Shown: positions 1,534-64,000 of the stretch, in pieces | How positions within the stretch are numbered: position 1 is the stretch's first letter | Layout of the letters: each line of letters starts with the position of its first letter | Origin: a virus | Taxonomy: Duplodnaviria; Caudoviricetes | Strand: one strand, 5' to 3' | Length of the DNA: 64,000 nucleotides | Virus record (IMG/VR): IMGVR_UViG_3300033075_001536 | Span: 96,001-160,000 of that record | Program-made: the position numbers and the translations under genes | The notes under the pieces: model-generated | The model's database searches: none | What the model was told of the DNA's origin: nothing | What the model saw: the letters and a program-made list of their open reading frames with translations, nothing else

Positions 1534-2103
1534 GTGGAACAATTCAGTAAGTTAAAGCCAAAAAATGATTTCGATGAAGGTAAAGAAAAGGTTCTCTTTG
1601 ATGGAGACTATTTAAAAGTAGTTGATTTTGAAGGATCAAAAATTCTCAAAGAAAAAGATACGGTTATCTGCATACCCTATCTAATTGAAGAAAATAAAAT
1701 TATTTTAAGACACGAATATGTTCCATCTTATAAAATGGCTGATGGACAAGATTATCACATGACAGTGATATCTGGTGGAATCGAGGCCGGAGAAACCCCA
1801 GAGAAAGCTTTATATAGAGAGTTAGAAGAAGAGGCTGGAATCACTGTTCGTCCTGGGTATCAACCAGAGGTTCTAAAACCATTATTCATATTTAAAACAT
1901 CTTCTAATAAATACTATCCCTATTTACTTAGTCTTTCATCCACCGATTTTCAAGAGGTGATGGCTAAAGGAGATGGATCTCATTTAGAGAAAAAATCTAA
2001 ATCAGTTAAAGTAGATGTAAAGTTTCTTAAATCAATTAATTCTTCAGATCTAATTACTGAATTTATGATAGATAAAATTAAAAAATTTATTAACCAGGAA
2101 TGA
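1534..2103 (+). CDS. NUDIX hydrolase
   Basis: Nudix box GGIEAGETPEKALYRELEEEAG. Confidence 0.9.
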   Translation: MEQFSKLKPKNDFDEGKEKVLFDGDYLKVVDFEGSKILKEKDTVICIPYLIEENKIILRHEYVPSYKMADGQDYHMTVISGGIEAGETPEKALYRELEEEAGITVRPGYQPEVLKPLFIFKTSSNKYYPYLLSLSSTDFQEVMAKGDGSHLEKKSKSVKVDVKFLKSINSSDLITEFMIDKIKKFINQE

Positions 2104-2684
2104 TTTTTTTAGAAAGATTTGGTAGTTCTTCAAAAACAATAGATCAAAAAATTAAACTGATCCTACTTATCCAAAATATTGGAACAGGTCAAGGTAACTT
2201 TAATTTAGAGAGAGATATGTCAGAGAGAAAATTTCCGATGTTATATTCTTTGATGAAAGAAGATGGTTTAATGGAAATTCCGAATAAAATGCCAAAGCTA
2301 ACTATGTCTGAGAAGGGACATGTGGAGGAGATGTATGATTATTTAGATAAAAAATTTGGAATAAGTGTTCTTCCTGATCTATCACAAATCAGAGAATATT
2401 TTTATGATATTGTTGATCTTGGATTTAGTTTAGAGGAAAGTATTGTCCTCCAAAAACCTGGATCTTCTAAATCTTATGGAAAAATTTCAATGAACCAGTC
2501 ACACTATAAAATAAGGGTAGCTATTACACATGATGAAAGTAATCTTGGTATGCAATTATTTTTCGATCTTCAATCGACCATAGAAGCTATGATGATAACA
2601 CTGGAAGAGGTTTATAAAGCCGAATTAATTGTTGGTGGTGGTGCTAAATGGACAGATTTTAAAATATTAATAACATCACAATAA
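2100..2684 (+). CDS. Hypothetical protein of the repeated 'I..(Y/I)F.D+.D.GF' family
   Basis: QIREYFYDIVDLGF motif shared with many ORFs in the window. Confidence 0.55.
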   Translation: MIFLERFGSSSKTIDQKIKLILLIQNIGTGQGNFNLERDMSERKFPMLYSLMKEDGLMEIPNKMPKLTMSEKGHVEEMYDYLDKKFGISVLPDLSQIREYFYDIVDLGFSLEESIVLQKPGSSKSYGKISMNQSHYKIRVAITHDESNLGMQLFFDLQSTIEAMMITLEEVYKAELIVGGGAKWTDFKILITSQ

Positions 2685-2712
2685 AAAAGAGTTAGATTTC
2701 TCTAACTCTTTT
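2685..2712. terminator. Bidirectional intrinsic terminator
   Basis: AAAAGAGTTAGA-TTTC-TCTAACTCTTTT perfect inverted repeat between convergent genes. Confidence 0.85.
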
Positions 2713-2732
2713 CAAATAGCTGTTCAACTTTT

Positions 2733-3767
2733 TTATTTTAATTTTTTACCACAAGACGGGCAAAAATTTTCAGACCCTTTTAATTTATTTCCACAATTTT
2801 CACAAAAATTCAGTTGAACATTGTTCATTAAATTTCTGATTTCCTCTTTGTGTTTTGGTTGTATAATATCCCTGGTGTCAATAGGTCTTCTTGACTCTGG
2901 TAATATTTGTAATACAACTGATGTAATACACATACTTTGAAATTGCATATCTATTTCTGTGAATTGTTGTGAGGAAGATGATCCTTTTTCAATTCTACCA
3001 GTTTCAATATTTGAACTACAATTGAATGATTGAACATTGTTCAATGTAAATCCGTCAGACAATTGTGAATAAGAATTGCTAATATTTATTGATCCACTCG
3101 TTAAGTTTAAATTACCATCTCCTTGTAAAGTTGTATAATTTGCGGTATTTGTTGTTAATGCTGATCCAAAACATCCGCCAGTTGTTATGCTTCCACCAAT
3201 TGGATTTAGCCAATATGGATAGGTTCTATAAAATGGATAGTAGTCATAATGGTGATAGTGTTTTTCAATTACCTTTGGATAATTTGGAATATTCACCACT
3301 TCTTCCTTGAAAAATCTTACTTCCAGTAATCCATTTTTAGCAATTGCTTCCATAGATTGATTTGTATTTTCAACCTCATAAGTTTTGAATACAAATTTTT
3401 TCTTATCATCTGGAAAGCAATCTAGATAAAACCTCTGACCTGGTCGTAAGACGAGTCCAGATGATGATACAGACTGTCCATTTAGTTTTATGTCACATAG
3501 AATACAAGATGTGAGTGGGTTGTATAATTCGATTAAGAACTCGGTATTGTCATCTAAATAGACTTTACCATTTTTGATAGATTTTCGGCCTCTATCAGAC
3601 ATGGAACAGATCCATGCACCGGGCATCATTGATGCTCTTGGTTGTTTAACTTTCATAGTTATTCTTTTATTTTTTTGACCTATATCTTCAAGACTTTCAT
3701 CTTTCAAAAGTATTACTTGAATACTCGACATAGATTTGAAGCGAACAGCTACATGGATATATATCAA
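2733..3767 (-). CDS. Hypothetical protein with C-terminal zinc ribbon (true start possibly about 3656)
   Basis: C-terminal FCENCG...FCPSCG. Confidence 0.7.
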   Translation of the reverse strand: MIYIHVAVRFKSMSSIQVILLKDESLEDIGQKNKRITMKVKQPRASMMPGAWICSMSDRGRKSIKNGKVYLDDNTEFLIELYNPLTSCILCDIKLNGQSVSSSGLVLRPGQRFYLDCFPDDKKKFVFKTYEVENTNQSMEAIAKNGLLEVRFFKEEVVNIPNYPKVIEKHYHHYDYYPFYRTYPYWLNPIGGSITTGGCFGSALTTNTANYTTLQGDGNLNLTSGSINISNSYSQLSDGFTLNNVQSFNCSSNIETGRIEKGSSSSQQFTEIDMQFQSMCITSVVLQILPESRRPIDTRDIIQPKHKEEIRNLMNNVQLNFCENCGNKLKGSENFCPSCGKKLK

Positions 3768-3784
3768 AGTTGATGTCCGTTGTT

Positions 3785-3793
3785 TAATATATA
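3785..3793 (+). promoter_or_regulatory. Putative phage late promoter TAATATATA (representative of more than 20 copies)
   Basis: Recurs 4-6 nt upstream of start codons at 3798, 14934, 20023, 20512, 27338, 43422, 47802, 53291, 62832 and many minus-strand genes. Confidence 0.75.
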
Positions 3794-3797
3794 ATTA

Positions 3798-4346
3798 ATG
3801 AAATATATTAAGCTTTTTGAAAATTTTAATAATATTGGACGAGTTGTTTTAACTGGAGTTTCTGGTAGTGGAAAGACGACACTTTTAAACTATCTATCAA
3901 AAGATTTTAAAACTATTCCAGAGGCAGCCAGAGAACTAATTATAGAATTAAAAAAAAGTGATCCGTCTAAACTACCTTGGAATAATAGAGGTGAATTTCA
4001 AAAGCTAGTTGAAAAAAAGCAAGTAGATAATTTTTTAGAAAATGATAATTGTTTTTTTGATAGGGGAATTATTGATGAGGTCGCTTATAATTTGGCATAT
4101 GGTAGAGACATTTCAAATACTCTTAAATCACAATGTGTGAATTATAAATATGATAAAGTTTTTTTATTTAAACCTTATCCAGAAATATATGCTAATGATG
4201 CTGAAAGAGTTGAATCATTTGAAGAGTCTTCTAGGCTATTTCCATTTTTTGTTGAAGCATATAAATCCTATGGATATAATCCGGTTTTAATGATTAATGA
4301 TAGTTTGGAGAAACGCTTGGAATTTATATTAAATAGTATCTTGTAA
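3798..4346 (+). CDS. AAA_28/NadR-like P-loop ATPase or kinase with N-terminal CTS-like peptide
   Basis: GVSGSGKTT Walker A, PEAAR, FFDRG; starts MKYIKLFENF. Confidence 0.8.
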   Translation: MKYIKLFENFNNIGRVVLTGVSGSGKTTLLNYLSKDFKTIPEAARELIIELKKSDPSKLPWNNRGEFQKLVEKKQVDNFLENDNCFFDRGIIDEVAYNLAYGRDISNTLKSQCVNYKYDKVFLFKPYPEIYANDAERVESFEESSRLFPFFVEAYKSYGYNPVLMINDSLEKRLEFILNSIL

Positions 4347-4726
4347 TGAAATATCTTAAAAAATTTGAAAATTTGGTGTGGGAATTTAGTGTAGAAGAAG
4401 TTACCAACATTCTACAAGATTTTATGGACGAAGGATGGGACATTCGAATTAATAAATCATTTGAGGCTATTTGCATTCATGTTCATATTCCAATGAAAGT
4501 TATTCAAAGTGGTATAAATTACAATGCTCTAAATTATTTCCAAAAGGATTATGTTCCAGAAATGCAGAGAAAGGTGAGGTCGATTAAAAATAGATTAATA
4601 GAGTTTGGATTTGATAAGAAAAATATTTGTGGAGACAGTGGTCAGAAATTAAAGCACGAATGCTATAATGTTCAAAATCAATCTTATTACTGCACTATTT
4701 TTCTTTTAGATAAATCTTATTTCTAA
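4346..4726 (+). CDS. CTS-like peptide protein, repeated family
   Basis: MKYLKKFENL; ILQDFMDEG; RLIEFG. Confidence 0.65.
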   Translation: MKYLKKFENLVWEFSVEEVTNILQDFMDEGWDIRINKSFEAICIHVHIPMKVIQSGINYNALNYFQKDYVPEMQRKVRSIKNRLIEFGFDKKNICGDSGQKLKHECYNVQNQSYYCTIFLLDKSYF

Positions 4727-5266: not shown

Positions 5267-5626
5267 ATGATAAAAAGTTGGAAAAAATTTAATGAGAGAA
5301 TATTTACCAATGCAAAAAATTTAGATATTAATTTCGATACTTTGACGGATATATTCCAAGATATTATGGATGATTTTCCGATGGATATTGAAATTTATAA
5401 AAATAAAAATGAGGTATTGGTTGTTAAGTTGGATGGAGGTTGGTTTGGATCAATGGTCAATCCAGAAGTTTGGAACGAAATTAAAAGAATAGAAAGAGAA
5501 ATGAATGATGGTGGGTATATTGATCAAATAGGATCTAGAATGGAGGAAATTGGATATAAAATTGAACCAAATCATATGTTTTTATATCATGATTCTTTTT
5601 ATATGACTTTTGAAAAAATTTCCTAA
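5267..5626 (+). CDS. CTS-like peptide protein, repeated family
   Basis: MIKSWKKFNE; DIFQDIMDDFP; RMEEIG. Confidence 0.65.
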   Translation: MIKSWKKFNERIFTNAKNLDINFDTLTDIFQDIMDDFPMDIEIYKNKNEVLVVKLDGGWFGSMVNPEVWNEIKRIEREMNDGGYIDQIGSRMEEIGYKIEPNHMFLYHDSFYMTFEKIS

Positions 5627-9171: not shown

Positions 9172-10635
9172 TTATTGTTTTAAAACTCTTTTTATTTCAG
9201 ATTCATATATTTTCCACATTAAATTTTCCTTTACTTTAATGAAGGGTGATATTTTTTTAACTGTTTCAAAATCACCATTATCTAGTGCTGTATCTAAGAT
9301 ATCCTGTAATTGGCTTTTACGCATGCTTGAATAATCCACTTCTTTGGTTTCCTCAGGAGTTTCCTGAACTTCTTCAGCTTCTGGAGTTTCCGATTTTGGC
9401 TCATCCTCATAGTCTGGAAGAACTTGCTGAAGTTCCCATTTATCTAACTCGTTTATAACGAGACTAACAAGTCCATCTACCTTTGTTCTAGCATCAGCAG
9501 TTTTTGATAATATTCCTTTCATTAAAGCTAAAAATTCTCTAGCTGGCATTTCTATCATTTTACCATATACATGCTCTCTTAAATTTGGATATTTGTCAAT
9601 TTCTCTGTTTTGATTGATGAAATCTCTCAAATCGGCAGCTATTTTTGGACCATATCTAAAATCTTCAGCCTCATCAGCTAGTGTGTCTGTATTTAGGAAA
9701 GTTATTTCGGCTGTTCTTGGATCTTGTGGAATTCCTTTAGCAGATATTACTTCATATAATCCTTTTATAGTTTCATGAATTAGCATTGGGAAATCAATTC
9801 CTCTTGCTTTTATACAAGGTCCTGTTGGTTCATCTTCTTCCTTTTCATCCTCATCTTTAGGTTTTTCTTCCTCTGCCTCATATTCTTTTGGCTCTTTTGG
9901 TTCCCAGTCCACTTTAACAGCACCAGCAAATCCTTCTGGTTGCTCTTCCATCATCTGTGCTTTCACATCAATTGGAACAACCCAATCTAATTTTTCTGCG
10001 GTGTCGGTTATTCTGTTCCAAATATCTAAAATTCTATTTGCTGTTTGATCACCATATATTTCAACTAATTTTTCACGAACCATTTCATGATGAAGCATAT
10101 GCTTTGCATTTTTAGCTTCTCCTTGCTGAATATTGTTGGCTATTTTTCTTTTATGAATTTCTGCTCTTACTTCAGCATCTCTTAACTCTTGGTAGGTTGG
10201 CATTTCACATTGTTCACATTCCTCATCTTTCATAAATTGACCAACTTTATTTGGTCCAAGTAGTTTTATATCTAGTTCGACATCTTGTAAAATTTCTGGA
10301 TAATGCAATCTAATTAGGTCTTCTGCAAGTTGCTCAAGTTGTGTAAATCTTTGTTGAACTTGTTGCTTTTGGTTTCTTGATCCACCTCCACCGTAAAATG
10401 TTTGAGGATTAATAATATCTCCGATCATAAGTTGCATATTTTGTTCAACAAGACCCATTATCTCTCTACCATATCTCATGGCAAGCATTTGATTGTCAAT
10501 GCCACCTGCTTTTCTACGACCTTCTTCTTCAGTGTCTCGCAAGTAATTTCCACTTCTATCACCAGCTTCACCAGGAATAGCAGGATTTCCTTTAATGGTA
10601 ATTTCCTCTTTTACAAATTGTGTATATTTTCTCAT
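9172..10635 (-). CDS. Putative virion/head protein with CTS-like N-terminus
   Basis: MRKYTQFVKEE; acidic linkers; downstream of late-type promoter operon. Confidence 0.5.
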   Translation of the reverse strand: MRKYTQFVKEEITIKGNPAIPGEAGDRSGNYLRDTEEEGRRKAGGIDNQMLAMRYGREIMGLVEQNMQLMIGDIINPQTFYGGGGSRNQKQQVQQRFTQLEQLAEDLIRLHYPEILQDVELDIKLLGPNKVGQFMKDEECEQCEMPTYQELRDAEVRAEIHKRKIANNIQQGEAKNAKHMLHHEMVREKLVEIYGDQTANRILDIWNRITDTAEKLDWVVPIDVKAQMMEEQPEGFAGAVKVDWEPKEPKEYEAEEEKPKDEDEKEEDEPTGPCIKARGIDFPMLIHETIKGLYEVISAKGIPQDPRTAEITFLNTDTLADEAEDFRYGPKIAADLRDFINQNREIDKYPNLREHVYGKMIEMPAREFLALMKGILSKTADARTKVDGLVSLVINELDKWELQQVLPDYEDEPKSETPEAEEVQETPEETKEVDYSSMRKSQLQDILDTALDNGDFETVKKISPFIKVKENLMWKIYESEIKRVLKQ

Positions 10636-10637: not shown

Positions 10638-10904
10638 TTATTTTAAATATTTTTCAATGTCTTCACCTTCTTCATCCATTAAAGCAATAAATCTTTCAGC
10701 TACTTCTTTTTCAGTAGATTTCTTTTTTGCTTTTGGGCCTGGTGCAACACTTGGCTTGTCCCTTCTTACTGGACTAGGTCTCTTACCCGGATCTTGCCTT
10801 CTACCTGGCTCAGTTGGAGTAGTGGATGGTTTTGTTCCTGGTGAAGGAGCTGGCGCTGGTTGAGCTTCCTCATTGAACTTATCAAATTTTTTTATAAATC
10901 TCAT
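10638..10904 (-). CDS. Small Pro-rich protein with CTS-like N-terminus
   Basis: MRFIKKFDKFNEE followed by PAPAPSPG...PGPKA. Confidence 0.65.
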   Translation of the reverse strand: MRFIKKFDKFNEEAQPAPAPSPGTKPSTTPTEPGRRQDPGKRPSPVRRDKPSVAPGPKAKKKSTEKEVAERFIALMDEEGEDIEKYLK

Positions 10905-12071: not shown

Positions 12072-12596
12072 ATGAAATATTTAAGAAAATTTGGTGAAAA
12101 ATTTGAAATTTCCGATGAACAAGAATCTGAATTAATGAATATTTTTTCTGAGCGTGGTTGGAACTTGGTTGATCATAGAGTTGAGTTCTATGAAAATCCA
12201 AATAAAAATCTTTCTGGAAAATCTGGAACCATTAAAAGTGTTAAGAGTGAAGTAGCAACGGTTGATATAGACGGTAAGGAATATCAGGTTCCTTTTAATG
12301 AATTATTGGATAAAAATTTGGCAAAAATATATAGAAAGGAATCTCCTTTTAAGTCGGGTCCGGGGTTTGAGTATAAAACTATTGATGACTATCCACAAAG
12401 TGTTCGACTAATTTATAATAGACTTACTCCAGATCAAAAGAAATTTGTGGATGATAATGTTGAAAAATTTGCTAAAGTGGCTAAGAAGATGTTTTATAAA
12501 GGTGATAAAGATTGGAAAAAGTTCTTTACTAAAGAAACCAAAAAAATAGATAGTTTATCTGAATTGATAAATTCAATGAATAGTTATATGATATGA
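12072..12596 (+). CDS. CTS-like peptide protein
   Basis: MKYLRKFGE; SH3/KOW-like segment GKSGTIKSV. Confidence 0.6.
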   Translation: MKYLRKFGEKFEISDEQESELMNIFSERGWNLVDHRVEFYENPNKNLSGKSGTIKSVKSEVATVDIDGKEYQVPFNELLDKNLAKIYRKESPFKSGPGFEYKTIDDYPQSVRLIYNRLTPDQKKFVDDNVEKFAKVAKKMFYKGDKDWKKFFTKETKKIDSLSELINSMNSYMI

Positions 12597-13063: not shown

Positions 13064-13608
13064 AAATACCAAATGGCTTTAAAAATATTGCCGTACCTTC
13101 GGTTGCTGTCTTATCTAAAGACGATTTAAAACAAGTAAGTAATGGTGTAGAGCCAAAGATAGATAATAAACAAATATGTCCATCTTTTTTGATGGGTGTT
13201 GATCATCCAAATTTAGAAAAAGGACCTGATTCGGTTTCAAAATTCTTTTCAAAGTTATTTGAAGCTCGTCAAATGGCACATATATTTCATTTACAAGTAA
13301 ATGGCCAACCAGGATCTGGATGGGAACATACTGCACTTGGAGATTTTTATGAAAAATTATTGGAATTTACAGATGATATTATAGAAACCTATCAAGGGCA
13401 ATATGGAATTGTAGAAGGATATGAGATGATTGATACTAGCGCTACAAGAGATTATAACTCTTTAAAATATTTACAATCATTGGTTGAATTTATAAAGAAA
13501 GAGAGATATAATTGTTTATCTGAAGAAGATTCGCACCTACAAAATATTGTGGATGAAATTGTTGCTCTTGTTTATAAGACTATTTATAAACTAACCTACA
13601 TGAAATGA
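13048..13608 (+). CDS. Ferritin/Dps-like four-helix protein (DUF5856-like)
   Basis: AHIFHL, HTALGDFYE, DDIIETYQG, LQNIVDEI...TIYKL. Confidence 0.7.
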   Translation: METNLKIPNGFKNIAVPSVAVLSKDDLKQVSNGVEPKIDNKQICPSFLMGVDHPNLEKGPDSVSKFFSKLFEARQMAHIFHLQVNGQPGSGWEHTALGDFYEKLLEFTDDIIETYQGQYGIVEGYEMIDTSATRDYNSLKYLQSLVEFIKKERYNCLSEEDSHLQNIVDEIVALVYKTIYKLTYMK

Positions 13609-14246
13609 AATTTGTTAAGAGATTTGAATCCATTTATGGAAATTTTGAAGAAAAAGATGTTTCTTTAGAAAGGATGTTGTATTTAATTTGTGTTGCAAAC
13701 GATGATTGTGTATATGATGCTCCTGGTCCAGAAATTGCTCACCATGAAATATATGAGGGAGATTTTCCAATATTGAACTCAATTATGGATGATAACAATA
13801 GTGATTTTTTAATGGAGGATATAACTAAAGATATTTCAGGAGTTATAAAAAAATTATCCGACAAAGAAAAAAATAATATCAAAGAATTATATCATAAGTT
13901 AAATAGAACATATCGATTGGAAAAGTTCATTACAATAGATGATATTAAAGAATTAACTTATGATTTAGTTGATTCTGGATTTGAGTTGGAGTGGAAAATT
14001 TGGTGTGCTAAATTTAAAACTCCTAATGGATATTTTTCTTCTTTGAAAAACTTCCCAACCACAGAAATAGATATTAAATTCTCTTGTGATGAGGAATTGG
14101 ATAAATATTTTAACATGTCTGAAGATATCCAAACTTTAATAGAGAGACTAAGAGATAGCTACCAGGTTGATTTTAAAATAAGGCCTCATGGCAATACCAA
14201 TCTACCAATGATATCTTATAAAATTACTATTAGTAACAAGGATTAA
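13605..14246 (+). CDS. CTS-like peptide protein, repeated family
   Basis: MKFVKRFES; DIKELTYDLVDSGF. Confidence 0.6.
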   Translation: MKFVKRFESIYGNFEEKDVSLERMLYLICVANDDCVYDAPGPEIAHHEIYEGDFPILNSIMDDNNSDFLMEDITKDISGVIKKLSDKEKNNIKELYHKLNRTYRLEKFITIDDIKELTYDLVDSGFELEWKIWCAKFKTPNGYFSSLKNFPTTEIDIKFSCDEELDKYFNMSEDIQTLIERLRDSYQVDFKIRPHGNTNLPMISYKITISNKD

Positions 14247-14548
14247 TATAGGAACTGACTTCCTTTATCGTTATAATTCTTCATATTATTTGCAACATTA
14301 TCTATGTTGGATAAAGAATCGGATATATTTTTACTAATTAATTGTAAATTGGCAATAGAGTCATCAATTTGATCATTTGATTTTTTAGAATCTGACTGAA
14401 AATTATTTAATTCGTTTAAAAGTCCGTCAATATATTCCAATTTTAATTTAAAAAATTGTGCCATTTTTACCATCTCATCTTCGATATCACTGACTCTATC
14501 TGGAGATAATTGCATTTGAGCTTCGTTAAATGGTTTAAGATGTTTCAT
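14243..14548 (-). CDS. Coiled-coil protein with CTS-like peptide
   Basis: MKHLKPFNEA; heptad pattern. Confidence 0.65.
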   Translation of the reverse strand: MKHLKPFNEAQMQLSPDRVSDIEDEMVKMAQFFKLKLEYIDGLLNELNNFQSDSKKSNDQIDDSIANLQLISKNISDSLSNIDNVANNMKNYNDKGSQFLY

Positions 14549-14559
14549 TGATTTATATA

Positions 14560-14895
14560 TTAAAATTTTGACTCAATTTTAACCACTTTTATATTTATGT
14601 AGTATCCGTGATGTTGTCCACCTATTTTTAGATAACACTTTAATCCAATTTCTTCCAATCTATCATTTATCTCTTCTAAATATGGAATCATTTGACTATG
14701 GAATCTACCAAGTACTTTCCTATCATTGGATTCAAATTTGCTCCTGTAAATAATAGTTTTAGTTGCTTTTATGTAGATTTTTTCCAAACCAAGTTGTGGA
14801 AAATCATCCAGCAATTCTTGAAAGATATCATCAATGTCCACATTTCTGCTAACACCATTATTTATTTTAGATTCAAATAATTTTAAATATCTCAT
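14560..14895 (-). CDS. CTS-like peptide protein, repeated family
   Basis: MRYLKLFES; DIFQELLDDFP; RLEEIG. Confidence 0.65.
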   Translation of the reverse strand: MRYLKLFESKINNGVSRNVDIDDIFQELLDDFPQLGLEKIYIKATKTIIYRSKFESNDRKVLGRFHSQMIPYLEEINDRLEEIGLKCYLKIGGQHHGYYINIKVVKIESKF

Positions 14896-33101: not shown

Positions 33102-33163
33102 TTAAAGATTAAAACTAATTTATTATTATATTACTCGTATGAGCTAAGTTTACTATATATTAC

Positions 33164-47773: not shown

Positions 47774-47801
47774 CTAAAAAATTTTTTTAATATATAAAAC
47801 T

Positions 47802-53845: not shown

Positions 53846-54399
53846 AAAATTTAACACCATATATTGATTTTAATTCAGAGTTTTCTGATGAAGAGAAAAT
53901 GAAAAGGATGTTAAGTGATGAAGATCATTATACCAACCTATTAAATATTCTAATGAATGATTTGAAAGGTAAATGGTATGAAAAAATTGGAAAATATTTG
54001 GTTGGTAAATTTGGAAAAAGACTACCAAATGATTACCATTGGGTAAAATGTGAAAAGAATGATGATTTTAGATTTGTTGGAATCGCTTTTATGACTGGTA
54101 GTTTAGGAAATCTCAGTTTAAATGCAGAAACCATGCAAAAACTATGGGGAAATCCAATATTTCATGATAATTTTGGAGAAGGTGGTTTGGAAGACTTTGA
54201 AGAAGATTCTAGTGGATATGCTTCTTATTTTAAAACCATTAATGGACTAAATTTCCATATTGGATATGATCATCGTGGAACTGGTGTCGAGGTAATGTCT
54301 ATTTCTAATTTTTCACCAGCAACTCGTAAATATCCACCAGCAGAAGATGTTTTCAGTGCTTTAAAATTGTTGGTGGATGAGGTTGTTTATCTATATTAA
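53842..54399 (+). CDS. Hypothetical protein with CTS-like N-terminus
   Basis: MKNLTPYIDFNSE; HIGYDHRG. Confidence 0.6.
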   Translation: MKNLTPYIDFNSEFSDEEKMKRMLSDEDHYTNLLNILMNDLKGKWYEKIGKYLVGKFGKRLPNDYHWVKCEKNDDFRFVGIAFMTGSLGNLSLNAETMQKLWGNPIFHDNFGEGGLEDFEEDSSGYASYFKTINGLNFHIGYDHRGTGVEVMSISNFSPATRKYPPAEDVFSALKLLVDEVVYLY

Positions 54400-54905
54400 A
54401 ATTTAAAAATTAGTCTAAGTCCTTTATTTTCATATTGAAAATCCGACTCTTCAAATTTATATTCATCCAAAATTCGAATCATAAAATCTTTTAATAGTTC
54501 ATAATTTTTTTCAGATTCTTCTGAATTGGTGGTGATATCATAGTCCTGATTTTCATAAAAAAGGAATTCGATTTCAAAGGTGGCTTCACATACTTCTAAA
54601 TTCCACATTGAGTCAGGAATATTGTTTAATGATGTCACATTATTATAGTAATCATTTAGTATAAATTTATTATTTTCATCGATTAGTTTTAACATATATT
54701 CACCATGTCTATTCGCGTCTAGGTGTAACCAATATTCAATTCCCCCTGGTTTTCCTAATTCATCTGTAACAGAGTGCAAAGCATAGATAATATCTTCAAC
54801 ATCGGTTGTTTTTAGAAATTTATCAATTTTTTCTTTTAGAGATATTTTTGGATTAAGTATTTCTTTTTTCTTGAAAATATTTAAAAATTCTTCATAGGTT
54901 TTCAT
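54396..54905 (-). CDS. CTS-like peptide protein (MKTYEEF)
   Basis: N-terminus nearly identical to the T4 CTS MKTYQEF. Confidence 0.6.
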   Translation of the reverse strand: MKTYEEFLNIFKKKEILNPKISLKEKIDKFLKTTDVEDIIYALHSVTDELGKPGGIEYWLHLDANRHGEYMLKLIDENNKFILNDYYNNVTSLNNIPDSMWNLEVCEATFEIEFLFYENQDYDITTNSEESEKNYELLKDFMIRILDEYKFEESDFQYENKGLRLIFKF

Positions 54906-57720: not shown

Positions 57721-58116
57721 TTAAGGTTTTTTATTAATTTCTTCGAATGCAAAATACATTCTATTTCCAGTTCTAGAGACATATACATCTCTGTAACAGA
57801 TGGCATACCCAAAACTACATATTCTCTCTAATAATTCATCCGTCATTTGAAAGATGTCAAACATGTCTGAATTTACATTTGGATCTTGTGACATACTTTC
57901 AGTTGATCTTGATATTCCTAACAGAAAATCACCTTTGGGTTTTGGATAAATCATTAAATGCGGCTTAATATGATTTCTATTAGAATCTCTATCCTTACTT
58001 AGTTCAATAGTATCGACACGAAACCCCTCAGAAATCAAATCAGCTGCCATATTTTTAAGATCATCTTCAATTTTTGAGTATTTGCTAGATTCATTAAATG
58101 GTTTGATATGTCTCAT
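57721..58116 (-). CDS. CTS-like peptide protein, repeated family
   Basis: MRHIKPFNES; DLKNMAADLISEGF. Confidence 0.6.
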   Translation of the reverse strand: MRHIKPFNESSKYSKIEDDLKNMAADLISEGFRVDTIELSKDRDSNRNHIKPHLMIYPKPKGDFLLGISRSTESMSQDPNVNSDMFDIFQMTDELLERICSFGYAICYRDVYVSRTGNRMYFAFEEINKKP

Positions 58117-58514
58117 CTTTTACTAGTTGTATTTATTGTTACCTCCAGACAGTAATATAATTCACCATCTTCATAATCAGTACCATAGGTATCAAAGAAA
58201 TTTTTGTCCCATTCTTTTAAATATTCCACACTTGGCAACTTATCTAATCTACACATTGGACTTGTGGATATATCAACAAATTGATAGATAATTTGGCTAA
58301 TTTTATAATCTGTTTCTAAATGCTCATAGGCATCTTTAAAATCTTGTTCAATTTCTATGTATTGATTTAAATCTTTAAATTTTACTCTAACAGATTCAGC
58401 ATCTTTTGCATAGGAACGATCTTCGACTTCTAATCCAAATTCATCCCCAATAGATTGGAAATAAATGGATAGTCCTTCGTGGACATTACTTTCGTTAAAT
58501 TTCAATATTTTCAT
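58113..58514 (-). CDS. CTS-like peptide protein, repeated family
   Basis: MKILKFNES; YFQSIGDEFG. Confidence 0.6.
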   Translation of the reverse strand: MKILKFNESNVHEGLSIYFQSIGDEFGLEVEDRSYAKDAESVRVKFKDLNQYIEIEQDFKDAYEHLETDYKISQIIYQFVDISTSPMCRLDKLPSVEYLKEWDKNFFDTYGTDYEDGELYYCLEVTINTTSKR

Positions 58515-60377: not shown

Positions 60378-61469
60378 ATGCGTTTAAAAAAATTCTTTGA
60401 ATTTAAAGAATCTGACCTAGATCCAATCAAATCTTTTCATTTAAAAGATGAGTTAAATCCAAAACTATGGACAGACTTTGAATTGGATAGAGGAGTGCAT
60501 AAAAATTTGGTAAAAATTGCTACTGACTTTTATGATTCTTTAGAATTGAAGGGAAAAATTAAAGATATTATTCTAACAGGATCACTTTGTAATTATAATT
60601 GGTCTGAAAAGTATTCAGATTATGATTTACACATTTTGGTGAACTTTTCTGATATTTCAGATGATTTGATTTTAGTTAAAAAGTTTGTAGATGCTGCAAA
60701 AACTATTTGGAATAAAGAACATAATATCAAACTAAAGGGATATGAGGTAGAAATTTATATTCAAGACGAAAAGGAAAAACATAGATCAACTGGTGTGTAT
60801 TCTCTTTTAAATGATAAATGGAAAGTAAAACCAAATAAGGAAAAATTCGAAATTGATGAAGATTTAATTGCTAAAAAAGCAGAATCTATTATGTTATCTA
60901 TTGATGATCTAGAAAAAGAGTCAAAAGAAGATTTGCCTTACACAACATTCAAAGGACATGTTAAAAAGGTTTGGGAAAAAATAAAGAAAATGCGTTTAGA
61001 AGCATTAGATGAAGGCGGTGAATATTCAACTGGTAATTTAGTTTTCAAATTATTAAGAAGAAATGGGTACATTGAAAAGATTATGATCATGAAGAAAAAT
61101 GCCTATGAAAAGCAATTTACTTTGAATGAGGGAATTTTGGATTGGTTCAAAGATTCTGAGGAAGATGCAATGGGAAAACAAATACTGAAGAAGTTGGATG
61201 ATGTTGATCCGGAAGATATTGAAATGACAAAGGATAATGGTAATTGGATCCTATTCGCAAAACTTGGTAATAATCTAATAAGAATAGAAAGATCTGTGCA
61301 TTATGGTGCAAGACATATGCATTCAAATCACAATATTACCATAAATGATTCGGAATTACCTTGTTCATCATCTATAAAGGCAAAAATATATAGTAAGTTA
61401 GTAACCATGTATAATGATGAGAAAAAAAGACAAAATATCCAAAAAATATCAACTGACTTGAATATATGA
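60378..61469 (+). CDS. Pol-beta-superfamily nucleotidyltransferase with CTS-like peptide
   Basis: LTGSLCNYNW...SDYDLHI, VEIYIQ, GVYS, NLVFK.LRR.G; starts MRLKKFFEFKES. Confidence 0.75.
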   Translation: MRLKKFFEFKESDLDPIKSFHLKDELNPKLWTDFELDRGVHKNLVKIATDFYDSLELKGKIKDIILTGSLCNYNWSEKYSDYDLHILVNFSDISDDLILVKKFVDAAKTIWNKEHNIKLKGYEVEIYIQDEKEKHRSTGVYSLLNDKWKVKPNKEKFEIDEDLIAKKAESIMLSIDDLEKESKEDLPYTTFKGHVKKVWEKIKKMRLEALDEGGEYSTGNLVFKLLRRNGYIEKIMIMKKNAYEKQFTLNEGILDWFKDSEEDAMGKQILKKLDDVDPEDIEMTKDNGNWILFAKLGNNLIRIERSVHYGARHMHSNHNITINDSELPCSSSIKAKIYSKLVTMYNDEKKRQNIQKISTDLNI

Positions 61470-61897
61470 AATATCTAAAAAAATATGATGAAGGCTTTAT
61501 TGATTGGATCACTAATAAGTTCAAAAAAGAAGAACCAGAAGACACTGATACAGATGATAATAAAATAGCTAAAGGTATTATTAAAACTATTATTCCATCT
61601 ATTGATCCGGATAATATTGAATTTGTTGAAGCAACCTATGATAATGGGAATAAGAATTCCATCAATGTTAAATTAGGAGGTGGTAGCAATTTATACTTAA
61701 CGAAATATTATTCAAATTATGCTTTAAAAGTTGATGATGATGAAATTTTATGTGATGATGGTGATTATAAAGATAAGTCCGGTAAGGTTACAAGAACCAA
61801 TTATAAAAGGGTTATCTATGAACAATTACTTAAAAAGTATAAAGACGAGCAAGCAAGAGTTCGTTTTCAAAGAATTAGTACCAATGTTGGATTATGA
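61466..61897 (+). CDS. CTS-like peptide protein, paralogue of the NTase C-terminal domain
   Basis: EGFIDW...IDPDNIE...IY..L...Y.DE..R...QRIST. Confidence 0.65.
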   Translation: MKYLKKYDEGFIDWITNKFKKEEPEDTDTDDNKIAKGIIKTIIPSIDPDNIEFVEATYDNGNKNSINVKLGGGSNLYLTKYYSNYALKVDDDEILCDDGDYKDKSGKVTRTNYKRVIYEQLLKKYKDEQARVRFQRISTNVGL

Positions 61898-62337
61898 AAC
61901 ATTTAAGAAGAATAAATGAGGATGTCATTACAAGTGATGAGAAAGAGGAATTGAAAAACATCTCAACTGATTTAATTGATATGGGATTTAATATGCAAAT
62001 TGTTGAGGAGGATCAAAATTTTGTCCAATCTGTTAGATCACATTCTATTTATTATAATAAAAGAGTAGATTTTAGAAAAAGATTTGGAAGTAAAAGCTCA
62101 TTTAACTCTAGGTACCAATTTGTCCCAATTGATGATATGGTTAATAACATTGAGGAATATGGAGATTTTGTAAAGGAATTGTCTACCATTCTTCCAGAAA
62201 TAATTTTAAGAATAAAAGATTTAGGATTTAATATTGTACATTTATCTTACTATTTAAATGATATACTTGGTGGAAGTGGTTTTAAGACAGACTATGTTAT
62301 AACAATCAAAATCAAAAAAGAATATATATCTAAATGA
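61894..62337 (+). CDS. CTS-like peptide protein, repeated family
   Basis: MKHLRRINE; ELKNISTDLIDMGF; RIKDLG. Confidence 0.6.
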   Translation: MKHLRRINEDVITSDEKEELKNISTDLIDMGFNMQIVEEDQNFVQSVRSHSIYYNKRVDFRKRFGSKSSFNSRYQFVPIDDMVNNIEEYGDFVKELSTILPEIILRIKDLGFNIVHLSYYLNDILGGSGFKTDYVITIKIKKEYISK

Positions 62338-62813
62338 GAAAATTTTCACAAATAAATGAAAAAACAAATCCTTGGTATGCCAAAGGGCAGATCATTGCTT
62401 GTTTCAAAAGTGATGTGGATGATAAAGTTGTTGATTATTTTCTAAAAAAACTAAAATTAAAAAGAAGAGATTACCATTTTTCTATTGAACCTGGAATGGA
62501 AATGACGGATTCCTATATCATTGATGTTCCCCAAGGAGAAGAAGATAAATATATTAAATTATTACAATCTAATTTAAAAGACGAAATTGAATGGGTAGAT
62601 AGAAGAAATTTAAAATTTGAATTGAGAGCATATACTTCCTCATTTTGCGCTAAAGAACTTCAATCTCTATCAGAAGATACAGAAATTTCTGATCAAGAAT
62701 GGAAAGAAAGAAGTGAAAAAGTAATTGATATTTTAAAAATGATTGCTGTTGAGGATTATACCTTGCTTCGAGGAACTTATAAAGAATTTGATAAGAAATT
62801 TAACGAATTGTAA
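62334..62813 (+). CDS. CTS-like peptide protein
   Basis: MRKFSQINE; VPQGEE. Confidence 0.6.
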   Translation: MRKFSQINEKTNPWYAKGQIIACFKSDVDDKVVDYFLKKLKLKRRDYHFSIEPGMEMTDSYIIDVPQGEEDKYIKLLQSNLKDEIEWVDRRNLKFELRAYTSSFCAKELQSLSEDTEISDQEWKERSEKVIDILKMIAVEDYTLLRGTYKEFDKKFNEL

Positions 62814-62831
62814 CTTTAATATATACTTATT

Positions 62832-63521
62832 ATGATAAAACTATCTGAAATAGAACAAACATTTAAAGACATTTTTGAAGCTGAAGAGGGACTTGTCCAA
62901 TCGGTTGAAACTACTTATGAGCAATCTAAAAATAAAGAATTTTTTAAATTAGTTATCTCTCTACACGGACTTCAATTAAGTGATAACACGATTATACATA
63001 CTAAATTTATTTTTAAAACCGATTTGGGAAAAACACACATCACCAGTGATTCTTTTATTTACTTATATGATATCAATTGTATGTACCATAAAGTGGAATT
63101 TGATTCAGTAATTGATATGAAGAAAAAGGTTCAAGATATAGTGGAATCCATTGATTTTGGAACTGATATTCAAATTTTATCAGATTTTATTGAGGCACCA
63201 GCATCTTTTTTAAATTATTATATGAGAAAAAATGGAATTACAGATTATTCTGTATTTGATGTAAAATATGAACCTAAATTTAAAACCACTCCTTGTGATA
63301 AAACCACCTTTGATTTTGAAATAGATATTAATGATAATTATAAATTTGATTTATCTATAAGAAAGACTGAAAGTGATGAACCAGATGAGCCAAACGCTTA
63401 TCAATTCCAATTCAAATTTATGGATGAGGTGGAAACTGTTGAAACGGACACTCTAAAGAATATTCACTATTTTATCGGTTCTAATATTGCTCGAATGTTG
63501 GATGAAAAATTAAAATCTTAA
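62832..63521 (+). CDS. Hypothetical late protein
   Basis: TAATATATA 6 nt upstream. Confidence 0.6.
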   Translation: MIKLSEIEQTFKDIFEAEEGLVQSVETTYEQSKNKEFFKLVISLHGLQLSDNTIIHTKFIFKTDLGKTHITSDSFIYLYDINCMYHKVEFDSVIDMKKKVQDIVESIDFGTDIQILSDFIEAPASFLNYYMRKNGITDYSVFDVKYEPKFKTTPCDKTTFDFEIDINDNYKFDLSIRKTESDEPDEPNAYQFQFKFMDEVETVETDTLKNIHYFIGSNIARMLDEKLKS

Positions 63522-63524
63522 TCT

Positions 63525-63920
63525 ATGAAAATTAGGAAATTTAATGAGGGAATCGAGCCTGGTCATATGACTCTTCAATATTTATTTGATTCTGCCGATC
63601 AAATTGTTGGAATAAATTTGGATAACGAAAGAAGTTTAAAGTGGTTAGAAGAACATCATAATTTGGAAAATGATTTTACTTTTTCAGATCACTCATTACA
63701 AAAATTTGATGGTGGATATTTTATTTGGCCCGCAAATAATTTTAATTGGGGATTTTTATTTGTATATGTTGGTGATAGTGATACTCCAAAGGCAATTATA
63801 TATGTTGGTGAGCTCTTTAATCCATTTGCTTTTAAGAACATGATAATTTGCCCTGGTAGAGATTATGTTGTTGCTTATGATTGGCAGACTGGAGAATACA
63901 AAAAACATGCAATTAGATGA
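63525..63920 (+). CDS. CTS-like peptide protein
   Basis: MKIRKFNEGIEPGH. Confidence 0.6.
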   Translation: MKIRKFNEGIEPGHMTLQYLFDSADQIVGINLDNERSLKWLEEHHNLENDFTFSDHSLQKFDGGYFIWPANNFNWGFLFVYVGDSDTPKAIIYVGELFNPFAFKNMIICPGRDYVVAYDWQTGEYKKHAIR

Positions 63921-64000
63921 GAATTTTGAAATTTAATGAAGGACTAGAACCACACCACGCAACTTATGGGTATTTATTTAACGCTTGTAAAGTGACAAAT
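63917..64000 (+). CDS. Partial ORF, tandem paralogue of the preceding gene
   Basis: MRILKFNEGLEPHHATYGYLF versus MKIRKFNEGIEPGHMTLQYLF. Confidence 0.6.
   Translation, partial: MRILKFNEGLEPHHATYGYLFNACKVTN

Follow-up and report, generated by a model that had tools for sequence, protein, structure and literature searches.

An N-terminal peptide with partial likeness to the T4 capsid targeting sequence is common to about a quarter of the genes in a segment of a huge phage genome

The analyzed window, a stretch of 64,000 nucleotides, belongs to a 170,678-bp contig of a huge, AT-rich phage whose sequence supports its placement among T4-related phages. The nearest records are uncultured phages of 635 to 735 kb, and a fragment of a gp23-type capsid gene is located at the contig end. 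Analysis of the open reading frames (ORFs) revealed a short N-terminal peptide (tag) that is common to about one-quarter of the window genes, which is a genuine observation. The tag is 9 to 12 residues long with the consensus M-K-[YH]-[LI]-K-x-F-[NE]-E; a rarer form reads x-K-Y-x-x-F-[ILV]-x-E. ORFs were scored with an 8-column matrix at a threshold of 5.87, at which 1% of 3,064 internal segments were falsely flagged. The tagged genes of the window, with matrix scores and offsets, are as follows.

3798..4346, + strand: tagged, MKYIKLFENF..., score 17.2, TAATATATA 4 nt upstream; AAA_28 P-loop NTPase/kinase-like body (Pfam E = 8.3e-32, residues 15-173)
4346..4726, + strand: tagged, MKYLKKFENL..., score 18.6; no Pfam family
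5267..5626, + strand: tagged, shifted one residue, MIKSWKKFNER..., score 15.4, offset 1
10638..10904, - strand: tagged, MRFIKKFDKFNEE, then a Pro/Ala-rich linker, score 13.9; ortholog in the 642-kb relative likewise tagged
12072..12596, + strand: tagged, MKYLRKFGEKFE..., score 17.5
13605..14246, + strand: tagged, MKFVKRFESI..., score 13.2; no Pfam family
14243..14548, - strand: tagged, MKHLKPFNEA..., score 20.2 (the contig's best), TAATATATA directly upstream; ortholog in the 642-kb relative tagged (MKKIRKFNES)
14560..14895, - strand: tagged, MRYLKLFESK..., score 17.0
21671..22486, + strand: tagged, MRILKFLPFFEN..., score 14.0, offset 3; body weakly methyltransferase-like (Pfam Methyltransf_12 E = 4e-4, below the curated cut-off)
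22483..23190, + strand: tagged, MIHIRRFNEN..., score 15.6
23162..23956, + strand: weaker, shifted tag, MKIKNWTKFNES..., score 12.3, offset 2
23943..24509, + strand: tagged, MKYIKKFEEI..., score 19.1
26669..27322, - strand: tagged, MQYLKLFEEL..., score 18.1; SAM-dependent methyltransferase body (Pfam Methyltransf_31 E = 4.4e-9, residues 54-134)
27338..27691, + strand: tagged, MRIKLFKDFNEH..., score 14.0, offset 2
36510..37067, + strand: tagged, MKHLKKFENF..., score 19.4
43422..45026, + strand: T4-type form, MMQLDRYFDFLNES (Y-x-x-F-L-x-E), 534 aa, score 12.1, class-2 regex match; DnaJ-type Cys-rich domain (Pfam BSD2_CRD E = 5.6e-7)
47802..48242, + strand: tagged, MKHLRYFESS..., score 16.4
57721..58116, - strand: tagged, MRHIKPFNES..., score 18.8
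58113..58514, - strand: tag one residue shorter, MKILKFNES..., score 11.5
60378..61469, + strand: weaker tag, MRLKKFFEFKES..., score 11.9
61466..61897, + strand: weaker tag, MKYLKKYDEG..., score 12.3
61894..62337, + strand: tagged, MKHLRRINED..., score 17.3
62334..62813, + strand: weak tag, MRKFSQINEK..., score 8.7

At the 1% threshold, the matrix flagged 27 of the 86 window ORFs, where about 1 was expected, and 60 of the 232 ORFs on the whole contig. The numbers were 17/86 and 31/232 at 0.1%, and 34/86 window ORFs were flagged at 5%. When the matrix was trained without the window ORFs, 23/86 (1%) and 17/86 (0.1%) were recovered. The initial annotation had counted about 40 tagged genes; the tag itself was confirmed, and all twelve quoted N-termini are positioned at ORF starts within the window, but the count is generous because the matrix flags 23 to 34 window ORFs. 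At least one of these is a chance look-alike, the thymidylate synthase at 45828-46964. The sub-threshold, doubtful and false matches are listed below.

1167..1493, + strand: doubtful match, MATKEYKLIKLKEN, score 8.7, offset 5; lies before the start of the region annotated as tagged
2100..2684, + strand: doubtful weak match, MIFLERFGSS..., score 8.0; BLAST-related to 13605-14246
9172..10635, - strand: T4-type form, MRKYTQFVKEE (Y-x-x-F-V-x-E), 487 aa, class-2 regex match under the class-1 matrix threshold; no Pfam family; ortholog in the 642-kb relative begins MKNFSKFLEE
35650..36405, - strand: sub-threshold look-alike, MKIKKFHEVS, TAATATATA directly upstream; opens a strand run ending with the DnaB-like helicase and ribonucleotide reductase genes
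40986..41642, + strand: N-terminus MVIKKFNDFLDD; orthologs in two relatives tagged with differently placed forms, MNYSMMRIKKFESF (642-kb relative) and MGSKHIKTFENF (636-kb relative)
45828..46964, - strand: thymidylate synthase, score 12.0, offset 5; rejected as a false positive, a native N-terminus look-alike (Pfam Thymidylat_synt E = 1.6e-94 from residue 6)
49644..50705, - strand: doubtful weak match, MRIKRKFLQL, score 7.1; body weakly M28 peptidase-like (Pfam Peptidase_M28 E = 2.9e-4, below cut-off)
54396..54905, - strand: N-terminus MKTYEEFLNIF, below the matrix threshold; no Pfam family; 6 of the first 7 residues identical to T4 IPII/IPIII, without the I-x-E end
63525..63920, + strand: N-terminus MKIRKFNEG, one residue short of the full tag and hence below threshold; heads a tandem paralogue run (3 members, contig 159525-160698) extending past the window end

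The signal was also evident when no motif was chosen beforehand. Over the 232 contig ORFs, K was enriched 2.9-fold at residue 2 and F 3.6-fold at residue 7 (45 ORFs), with further enrichment of L/I at 4, K at 5 and E at 8-9. A strict regex matched 35/232 N-termini compared to 355 of 45,891 internal 13-residue windows (0.77%) and 2/862 windows following an internal Met. The tag starts exactly at residue 2 in 41 of the 60 tagged contig ORFs, the commonest triplet following F7 in strong tags is N-E-S (19), and the helical hydrophobic moment is 0.53 compared to 0.33 for other N-termini. Tagged ORFs were likewise detected in the complete 642-kb relative (142/962), in more distant relatives of 735 kb (62/1,013) and 636 kb (75/917), and in 80 IMG/VR capsid-module loci (176/1,690). 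Internal controls for these counts gave about 1%. The same processing flagged 1 of 262 ORFs in T4. The rarer form was enriched 17- to 27-fold at N-termini in the contig and in the 642-kb and 735-kb phages, and was not N-terminally enriched in the 636-kb phage. Literature searches did not reveal a paper describing such a tag.

The bodies behind the tag are unrelated, as had been proposed. BLASTP analysis of the 60 tagged contig proteins from residue 19 to the end (E <= 1e-3) yielded 52 families, and the known folds include AAA_28, SAM methyltransferase, lysozyme, NUDIX, SET and RecA-like. Among the 120 homologues listed for the AAA_28 protein, only the 4 closest carry the tag, and in these the P-loop is displaced to begin at residue 20-22, compared to about 9-17 otherwise. 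The 642-kb relative encodes an untagged lysozyme of 153 aa and a tagged one of 253 aa with an N-terminal extension of about 100 residues. The tag is thus supported as a modular N-terminal add-on to unrelated proteins. Descent of all tagged genes from one ancestral gene or promoter-plus-leader cassette, by many duplications followed by divergence of the bodies, would account for tandem paralogues such as the run from 63525 and the pair at 60378-61897, and remote homology is invisible to BLASTP. This origin is very improbable given the number of families and folds, the many untagged bacterial homologues of the AAA_28 body, and nucleotide conservation that does not go beyond the peptide requirement.

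Synonymous codon use inside the tag matches genome usage: the major codon was used 360 times of 476 (343 expected), and Leu at tag column 4 is encoded by TTA (13), TTG (5), CTT (4) and CTA (4). This genome-like synonymous variation places selection on the peptide and not on the RNA, and supports selection at the amino-acid level. Substitutions within the tag interchange K/R, L/I and F/Y.

The motif TAATATATA occurs 24 times in the window compared to 3.9 expected, a number reached by 0 of 100 shuffles. On the contig, 60 of its 67 sites lie outside ORFs, mostly 4-6 nt ahead of an ATG; it was found within 40 nt of 55 genes and 4-6 nt before the ATG in 38 of these. Tagged genes mostly lie at or downstream of the motif, as initially described (18/27 tagged window ORFs), but the motif showed no specificity for them within the window: 30/59 untagged ORFs share this placement (Fisher p = 0.24). 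An association of tag and promoter class, which the initial annotation had proposed to examine, was strong in the 642-kb relative, with 114/387 genes in AATATATA units tagged compared to 7/224 in host-like TA..TTTG units (21/342 of unassigned genes), and not significant inside the window (p = 0.13-0.24). In that relative, AATATATA is located immediately ahead of the genes for the portal, large terminase, tail fibre and baseplate hub, and its driving of both tagged and virion genes was counted in favor of a T4-like capsid-targeting role. TAATATATA is also positioned upstream of the DnaB-like helicase and ribonucleotide reductase genes; therefore, the promoter is not purely late, and tagged genes need not be late. 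The replication genes lack the tag, as had been stated (ribonucleotide reductase large subunit, DnaB-like helicase and a 555-aa helicase).

The spacing of TAATATATA in those 38 of 55 genes would suit a shared N-terminus that reflects translation initiation, with AT-rich unstructured 5' ends on leaderless mRNAs beginning 4-6 nt after the motif. The AT content at tag codon positions 1 and 2 (0.74 and 0.85 compared to 0.60 and 0.70 in the body) is also in line with this explanation. However, third-position AT is 0.83 in the tag and 0.80-0.81 elsewhere, synonymous codons track genome usage, and the substitutions are conservative chemically, not by nucleotide. AATATATA lies directly upstream of only 22/60 tagged genes on the contig and 63/142 in the 642-kb relative, where operon-internal genes are tagged about as often (51/192) as promoter-proximal ones (63/195), and AT-rich T4 lacks the signal. 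The initial annotation had itself named nucleotide bias on leaderless mRNAs as a possible cause; synonymous codon use and internal-gene tagging speak against it, and the explanation is largely refuted, with hardly any probability left to it.

A reciprocal best match in the 642-kb relative was found for 15/60 tagged compared to 84/172 untagged contig genes (p = 0.0014), and 82 strongly tagged proteins matched 10 Pfam families compared to 36 for 82 length-matched untagged proteins. None of 9 PHROG-annotated virion or lysis proteins carried the tag. These findings, together with the tagged lysozyme and the high hydrophobic moment of the tag, would suit a cargo role. In each of the four genomes, however, tagged proteins have acidic bodies (contig median net charge -3.1 compared to 0.0 per 100 residues). 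The tag was shown to sit on fast-turning-over proteins of unknown function in the phage-promoter class.

For the T4 capsid targeting sequence (CTS), residues 4 and 7 are described as the determinants of targeting and residues 8 and 10 as those of processing, with gp21 cleaving after L/I-x-E (PMC9026906). The T4 IPII/IPIII N-terminus is MKTYQEFIAE (NC_000866). The tag shares with these mapped CTS positions the hydrophobic residues 4 and 7 (L/I, F) and Glu at 8-9 (PMC9026906), and its rarer form matches the IPII/IPIII CTS; the T4-exact minority form Y-x-x-F-[ILV]-x-E was found in 9/232 contig ORFs. The main form is statistically distinct, as IPII/IPIII score -3.2 and IPI -0.4 against the threshold of 5.87. 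The resemblance initially noted holds for these positions and, exactly, for the rarer form; it depends on a handful of residues in a short peptide of common composition.

The protease gene is absent from the contig because the contig ends inside the capsid gene. In the relatives, a gp21-like protease-scaffold fusion of about 700 aa is encoded directly upstream of the gp23-type capsid gene. An hhalign comparison matched its first 170 residues to T4 gp21 over 144 columns (probability 77%, E = 2e-5), and the GE..HP and VSSR..G blocks within this alignment do not vary across 40 sequences. The Pfam S77 match is weak, and a search of the protease-domain profile against solved structures returned by sequence only a ribosomal protein (E = 0.26). 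The junction between protease and scaffold contains [LI]-N-E-S in 72/80 loci, aligning with I-T-E-S near the C terminus of T4 gp21. I-N-E-N was found in the capsid propeptide of 71/78 loci by regex, and also in all 4 inspected among the 7 loci that the regex missed. Putative cleavage sites of the clade's scaffold-protease and capsid propeptide thereby share the hydrophobic-x-Glu end of the tag; the frequency of [LIVMF]NE[SAN] per 1,000 residues is 4.3-7.4 in scaffold-proteases compared to 0.28-0.36 in proteomes.

These features point, with a probability of roughly 45%, to the tag as a portable amphipathic address label for capsid loading similar to the T4 CTS. The tag would dock its protein onto the prohead scaffolding core, formed by the C-terminal part of the protease-scaffold fusion; the cargo would be enclosed as the gp23-type shell forms, and the protease would cut after the Glu of the hydrophobic-x-Glu end, freeing the cargo inside the head. 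Because a quarter of the genes carry a T4-like tag, the phage may load its head with far more protein cargo than is usual. The initial interpretation is partly supported; its "injected proteome" is an inference on an inference. A count of 60 tagged species in 170 kb and 142 in 642 kb speaks against capsid loading. To our knowledge, any known head cargo comprises far fewer species. The tagged bodies are also acidic, whereas PMC9026906 describes basic internal proteins for T4.

Such acidic and very numerous cargo, unlike known head cargo, would suit a docking or address label for a non-capsid destination, read by a phage-encoded hub, chaperone, unfoldase adaptor, modifying enzyme or other late-assembled structure that would recognize a free amphipathic N-terminal helix. 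Any such reader would be compatible with the location of the tag at the N terminus, its selection as a peptide, its modularity and its amphipathicity. This destination is nevertheless unlikely, if with a substantial minority chance: no candidate reader was found, the head scaffold-protease and capsid propeptide are enriched in motifs that match the hydrophobic-x-Glu end, and hydrophobic residues 4 and 7 match the T4 determinants mapped in PMC9026906.

For capsid loading, the C-terminal part of the fusion would be the docking partner. It consists of 10-13 tandem 14-residue units (K-N-I-a-Y-S-E-Y-[IL]-A-E-n-L-D), in which Y-S-E-Y-[IL]-A-E resembles the rarer tag form, not the main form. T4 gp22 has no such unit, and mimicry of the scaffold by the tag is therefore without T4 precedent. 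That the main form is not obviously scaffold-repeat-like, and that the best-conserved feature common to tag and head proteins is a putative cleavage motif, would agree with a purely proteolytic function, as a propeptide cleaved by the Glu-specific protease of the phage or as a degron recognized by a cellular one; the tag would then set the time at which late proteins are activated or eliminated in the cytoplasm, and they would not be packaged. This function is improbable, as the T4 model places gp21 in the prohead core and cleavage of its substrates there (PMC9026906). In addition, tag positions 2-7 are no less conserved than the Glu end, which would be superfluous for a bare cleavage site.

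All of the N-termini quoted in the initial annotation, which had described a shared N-terminal peptide (the tag; main form M-K-[YH]-[LI]-K-x-F-[NE]-E) on about 40 genes, were present in the window. ORFs were called alike in the contig (the whole record), in the related 642-kb (LR756502; complete and close), 735-kb (LR756501) and 636-kb (LR756504; both more distant) phages and in T4, using the first ATG, a length of at least 45 aa and greedy selection by length; these calls are crude and some starts are wrong, e.g., in the scaffold-protease of the 636-kb phage (a putative gp21-like protease fused to a repeat scaffold), from which 52 residues were trimmed for the motif-density count. A motif-free test of the 232 contig ORFs revealed enrichment of K at position 2 (2.9-fold) and F at position 7 (3.6-fold; 45/232), and L/I at position 4, K at position 5 and E at positions 8 to 9 were also enriched. 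A strict regular expression matched 35 of the 232 N-termini, compared to 355 of 45,891 internal windows (0.77%) and 2 of 862 windows following an internal Met. With an 8-column position matrix, whose threshold (score 5.87) was set at 1% false positives from 3,064 internal segments, 60/232 contig ORFs and 27/86 window ORFs were tagged; at 0.1%, the numbers were 31/232 and 17/86. Because this matrix had been trained on the same ORFs that it scored, it was retrained outside the window as a control. The retrained matrix detected 23/86 window ORFs at 1% and 17/86 at 0.1%, and the reverse split gave 23/146 and 9/146, respectively. These results indicate that the tag is real and that "about 40" was a generous count for the window, where the matrices found 23 to 27 tagged genes among 86. 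Thymidylate synthase is a chance look-alike among the window matches, and three or four further matches are doubtful. A generic AT-rich, T4-like N-terminus was ruled out as the source of the signal, since in the T4 control a single ORF out of 262 passed the 1% threshold.

The tag covers about 10 residues at the extreme N-terminus, starting at residue 2 in 41 of 60 proteins and shifted by 1 to 5 residues in the others. It is carried by 15 to 26% of the ORFs in the contig and the 642-kb phage and by 6 to 8% in the 735-kb and 636-kb phages. The preferred form varies with the lineage, being MKYLKLFE[ND]F in the 636-kb phage and mostly x-K-Y-x-x-F-[IL]-N-E in the 735-kb phage. A search of the literature on capsid targeting sequences in huge or jumbo phages, Lak and Bacteroidetes phages included, listed papers on SPN3US and T4 only, and no paper describing the tag was listed.

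The contig comprises 170,678 bp with 29.6% G+C and ends within a gene encoding a gp23-type major capsid protein (Pfam Gp23, E = 1.4e-8). The Gp23 search of the contig detected this true capsid fragment and nothing else, and no S77 protease gene was found on the contig, which stops within the capsid gene. Its 555-aa helicase shares 72.6% and 68.3% identity with counterparts in uncultured-phage records 642,428 and 634,780 bp long, and about 40% with those in records of 735,411 and 636,363 bp. According to the excerpted text of PMC7162821, Al-Shayeb et al. (2020) assigned their four largest genomes to the "Mahaphage" clade and predicted Bacteroidetes as the hosts. One untagged protein of LR756502.1 carries a Por_Secre_tail domain, the C-terminal sorting domain of type IX secretion, consistent with a Bacteroidota host.

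Codon choice within the tag followed that of the genome. Leu at column 4 was encoded by TTA (13), TTG (5), CTT (4) and CTA (4), as in genome usage, and AGA, CGA, CGT and AGG were all in use for Arg. The major codon was used 360 times compared to 343 expected (n = 476), and the third-position AT fraction was 0.83 in the tag compared to 0.80 to 0.81 elsewhere. Residue replacements were K/R, L/I and F/Y. Genome-like synonymous codons together with such replacements indicate that selection acts on the peptide; the same synonymous variation and replacements led to the rejection of a recombination cassette as the explanation. After removal of the first 18 residues, the 60 tagged contig proteins fell into 52 BLASTP families. 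Paralogy as the source of the tag is therefore ruled out for most genes and holds for a few tandem sets.

The phage promoter-like element TAATATATA, located just upstream of many genes, occurs 24 times in the window compared to 3.9 expected. Examples of its sites are:
3785-3793, plus strand, TAATATATA site
14554-14562, minus strand, TAATATATA site
27324-27335, both strands, TAATATATA sites
47788-47796, plus strand, TAATATATA site
On the contig, 60 of 67 sites lie outside ORFs, usually 4 to 6 nt before the ATG, a spacing which suggests that many of the transcripts are leaderless or near-leaderless. A further site (33154-33162) lies ahead of the window's genes for the DnaB-like helicase and ribonucleotide reductase, which makes the element a general rather than an exclusively late phage promoter.

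Analysis of upstream 8-mers in the 642-kb relative revealed two classes. The element AATATATA, the form found in this relative, precedes 195 of 962 genes, among them those for the portal, large terminase, tail fibre and baseplate hub (PHROGs). The second class (TATATTTG, or TA..TTTG) precedes 73 of the 962 genes of LR756502.1 (224 by the over-inclusive operon-level assignment, in which the class is passed along same-strand runs) and includes genes with enzyme-like N-termini. The TATATTTG-type element fits TA..TTTG, the Bacteroidota housekeeping promoter element. AATATATA lies directly upstream of 63/142 tagged and 132/820 untagged genes (odds ratio 4.2, p = 1e-12). By the same over-inclusive assignment, tagged genes made up 114/387 of the AATATATA class, 7/224 of the TA..TTTG class and 21/342 of the unassigned genes, and within AATATATA units the tagged fraction was similar for promoter-proximal (63/195) and internal (51/192) genes. 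This equality links the tag to a transcription class and not to leaderless initiation. In the window, TAATATATA was associated with 18/27 tagged and 30/59 untagged genes (p = 0.24). The proposed enrichment of the tag behind one promoter class is thus strong in the 642-kb relative and not significant in the window. None of the nine PHROG-annotated virion or lysis proteins of the 642-kb relative carried the tag. A nucleotide bias for translation initiation, which the initial annotation had named as grounds for refuting its reading, was rejected on the basis of codon usage, third-position AT and the equal tagging of internal operon genes. Explanations by translation and by common descent are largely excluded.

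The bodies behind the tag are diverse. One tagged protein of the window is an AAA_28 P-loop protein (E = 8e-32) with the domain starting at residue 15; the other identified tagged bodies are a SAM methyltransferase, a weakly matched second methyltransferase and a DnaJ-type Cys-rich domain protein. Only the closest four of the 120 AAA_28 homologues listed carry the tag. Their P-loop starts at residues 20 to 22, compared to mostly 9 to 17 in the others listed, which include named Bacteroidota proteins. This distribution and the shifted P-loop indicate that the tag is an add-on to a pre-existing domain. Only 10 Pfam families were matched by 82 strongly tagged proteins of the 642-kb relative, compared to 36 for 82 length-matched untagged proteins; those on tagged proteins include lysozyme, NUDIX, SET, RecA-like and a few others. 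Two lysozymes are encoded there, an untagged one of 153 aa and a tagged one of 253 aa with an extension of about 100 residues, which fits one activity with two destinations. Reciprocal best hits in the 642-kb relative were obtained for 15 of 60 tagged and 84 of 172 untagged contig genes (p = 0.0014), and tagged genes turn over fast. The tagged set is soluble, with membrane-like segments in 1/60 tagged proteins of the contig and 2/142 of the 642-kb relative, and has a median length of 156 aa. The tagged bodies are acidic, with a median net charge per 100 residues of -3.1 compared to 0.0 for other proteins in the contig and a shift in the same direction in the three relatives (p <= 2.3e-4). The tag itself would form a strongly amphipathic helix (hydrophobic moment, 0.53 compared to 0.33), followed by an acid-rich stretch.

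In three complete relatives, a gene encoding about 700 to 800 aa is positioned directly upstream of the capsid gene:
LR756502.1 225272-227371, scaffold-protease gene, with counterparts in LR756501.1, LR756504.1 and 80 IMG/VR loci
Every one of the 80 IMG/VR loci retrieved with the capsid protein contained such a gene. Alignment of the first 170 residues with T4 gp21 gave an hhalign probability of 77% (E = 2e-5). The blocks containing His85 and Ser140, the catalytic residues of T4 gp21, were aligned and are invariant in 40 scaffold-protease sequences. The Pfam S77 match in the relatives is weak (E = 1.8e-5; 22.7 bits, under the 27-bit cut-off), and a sequence search of the PDB with a profile of the 40 protease domains returned only a ribosomal protein (E = 0.26). 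The scaffold part consists of 10 to 13 near-perfect tandem units of 14 residues, K-N-I-a-Y-S-E-Y-[IL]-A-E-n-L-D (873 units in the 80 loci). Each unit ends in [IL]-A-E, and its pattern is that of the T4 capsid targeting sequence (CTS) and of the rarer tag form, Y-x-x-F-[ILV]-x-E. If every [IL]-A-E site were cut, the scaffold would be chopped into 14-residue peptides.

A related signature was found elsewhere in the head module. [LI]-N-E-S occurs at the protease/scaffold junction in 72/80 loci; its counterpart in the alignment with T4 gp21 is I-T-E-S, close to the gp21 C-terminus. I-N-E-N occurs in the capsid propeptide in 71/78 loci by regular expression, and also in all four of the seven misses that were inspected. 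The density of [LIVMF]NE[SAN] is 15 to 20 times higher in scaffold-proteases than in the proteomes. Tag residues 6 to 9 read F-N-E or hydrophobic-F-E, N-E-S is the commonest continuation after F7 of the main form, and the hydrophobic-N-E-S/N motif recurs in the clade's capsid propeptide and scaffold-protease. The end of the tag therefore resembles the scaffold-protease's own site and, judged from these motifs, looks like a putative cleavage site of the clade's protease. Past the tag (residues 13 to 24), [LI]-x-E sites are in slight excess only (0.22 to 0.34 compared to 0.16 to 0.25 per protein). Near the capsid genes, tagged genes also fill a slot of variable content immediately before the portal gene. 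A homologue of the gene that lies two positions beyond the capsid gene was present in 54/80 loci and is tagged in 28 of them. Small ORFs distant from the capsid gene, close to a region syntenic with 58 to 59 kb of the window, gave weak gp23-like matches:
LR756502.1 241210-241530, minus strand, gp23-like small ORF (E = 7.5e-4)
LR745206.1 255082-255243, minus strand, gp23-like small ORF (E = 1.9e-4)

In T4 (NC_000866), the internal proteins IPII and IPIII start with MKTYQEFIAE-A and IPI with MKTFKEF. These are the CTS of Mullaney and Black (1996), as quoted in excerpts of PMC9026906, PMC3012670 and PMC5694885. A fourth CTS-like N-terminus, MKTFKEFIKE, was noted beside IPI to IPIII in our own ORF calls:
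NC_000866 18966-19130, minus strand, 54-aa ORF
According to the excerpts of PMC9026906, targeting by the CTS depends mainly on residues 4 and 7 and processing on residues 8 and 10, and gp21 cuts after L/I-x-E. At the targeting positions, the tag has L/I/F (column 4) and F (column 7; log-odds 3.6), which is a likeness in sequence. Both peptides occupy about 10 residues at the extreme N-terminus, start with M-K, carry a hydrophobic or aromatic side chain at positions 4 and 7 (F at 7), and have a Glu-terminated end that could fit a gp21-type L/I-x-E site. In both cases, the carriers are diverse, rapidly replaced proteins, and the clade, like T4, encodes a gp23-type capsid protein, together with a putative protease resembling gp21. 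The Glu is at positions 8 to 9 in the main tag and at 10 in the T4 CTS, and the main tag has K at 5; the T4 tags score -3.2 (IPII/IPIII) and -0.4 (IPI) in the matrix, compared to the threshold of 5.87. The exact IPII/IPIII pattern, Y-x-x-F-[ILV]-x-E, was found in 9/232 N-termini and 4/2,534 internal segments of the contig, in 16/962 and 9/9,230 of the 642-kb relative and in 20/1,013 and 8/10,757 of the 735-kb phage; in the 636-kb phage it was not enriched (2/917 and 11/8,900). Ortholog swaps between the two tag forms were too weak as proof of their equivalence, with 4 swaps, defined by regular expression, in 458 reciprocal-best-hit pairs from six genome pairs. In many pairs, the tag is present in one genome and absent from the other.

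Our best reading, at a probability of roughly 45% since each functional step is inferred, is a capsid-targeting and processing tag of the T4 kind whose use has grown from roughly four genes in T4. T4 has 4 CTS-like ORFs among 262, in contrast to the 15 to 26% of ORFs tagged here. Here, protease and scaffold form one fused protein whose scaffold part consists of 14-residue repeats; T4 gp22 has no comparable repeat. The idea that the tag copies a unit of T4 gp22 was discarded, as no Y/F-x-x-F/Y-[ILV]-x-E unit occurs in gp22, gp67 or gp68; the only T4 fit was the gp23 cleavage context, F-G-S-F-L-T-E-A. T4 internal proteins are small and basic, as described in the excerpts of PMC9026906, in contrast to the acidic tagged proteins found here. 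The acidic bodies count against a simple T4-like role. The main rival, which we regard as unlikely, is an address tag with a reader other than the scaffold. ClpXP-type N-terminal recognition signals, a lead for this rival only, are likewise short Met-basic-hydrophobic motifs on unrelated proteins; they are not known to have a conserved Phe-Asn/Glu-Glu end or a link to capsid genes. Encapsulin cargo-loading peptides direct unrelated cargo into an HK97-fold shell by a short label, as is proposed for the tag. Unlike the tag, they are C-terminal; they bind the shell protein and not a scaffold, are uncleaved and serve a handful of cargo types. The giant phages phiKZ, 201phi2-1 and SPN3US carry long N-terminal propeptides on head and ejection proteins, and phiKZ-type giants, as in the capsid-targeting reading, load many proteins into the head and have a diverged gp21-like protease cutting after Glu (excerpts of PMC5694885 and PMC9026906). 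Their propeptides mostly exceed 100 residues, with no common short consensus in these excerpts, and 8 to 19 processed species are described, compared to the 60 to 140 tagged proteins of the different lineage studied here.

Under capsid targeting, the tag would dock onto the repetitive scaffold or copy one of its units, and the gp21-like protease would later cut the scaffold at the same hydrophobic-x-Glu sites as the tag end. The head cargo might comprise kinase-like NTPases, methyltransferases, the second lysozyme and dozens of proteins without known relatives, and the virion would deliver a ready-made starter proteome along with the DNA. That all these parts hold jointly in Bacteroidota-linked huge phages, with one short cleavable tag loading about a hundred different proteins per head by docking onto or copying the scaffold, is tentative and somewhat unlikely. 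Should the tag prove to be a capsid-loading signal, it would account for a large share of the unknown genes in the largest known phages and enlarge the known virion protein cargo by about an order of magnitude. Candidate injected effectors of uncultured phages, which are likely to act in counter-defence and takeover, could then be listed by a simple rule based on sequence. The 9-residue tag with its own protease site could also be a practical handle for bringing foreign proteins into large capsids in laboratory phage systems. If it has another reader, it would still mark an undescribed sorting system covering 15 to 26% of a phage proteome.

Among ten large window proteins searched, Pfam gave no match for nine and PHROGs none for five. 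Several large proteins and two N-termini of another class were noted. Nine proteins of 348 to 868 aa form a BLAST family (three in the list below, six more on the contig) that includes a DnaJ-like gene and DnaJ-type Cys-rich domain proteins, several with a tag or tag-like start. The ankyrin protein is a paralogue of two other large contig proteins.
33164-35653, minus strand, member of the nine-protein family
43422-45026, plus strand, member of the nine-protein family
48239-49402, minus strand, member of the nine-protein family
7077-9161, minus strand, 694 aa, C-terminal ankyrin repeats (Ank_2, E = 4.7e-11), tag-like start MQLLKYNGFIKS
24499-25950, minus strand, 483 aa, PHROG 850 "RNA-binding protein" (E = 7e-43) with an HNH endonuclease-like stretch inside (residues 317-411)
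2-427, plus strand, lipoprotein/signal-peptide-like start MKKLLTIVLLVVASLS, an N-terminal class distinct from the tag
661-1167, plus strand, start of the same class, MKKLIYLLTFIGLISI
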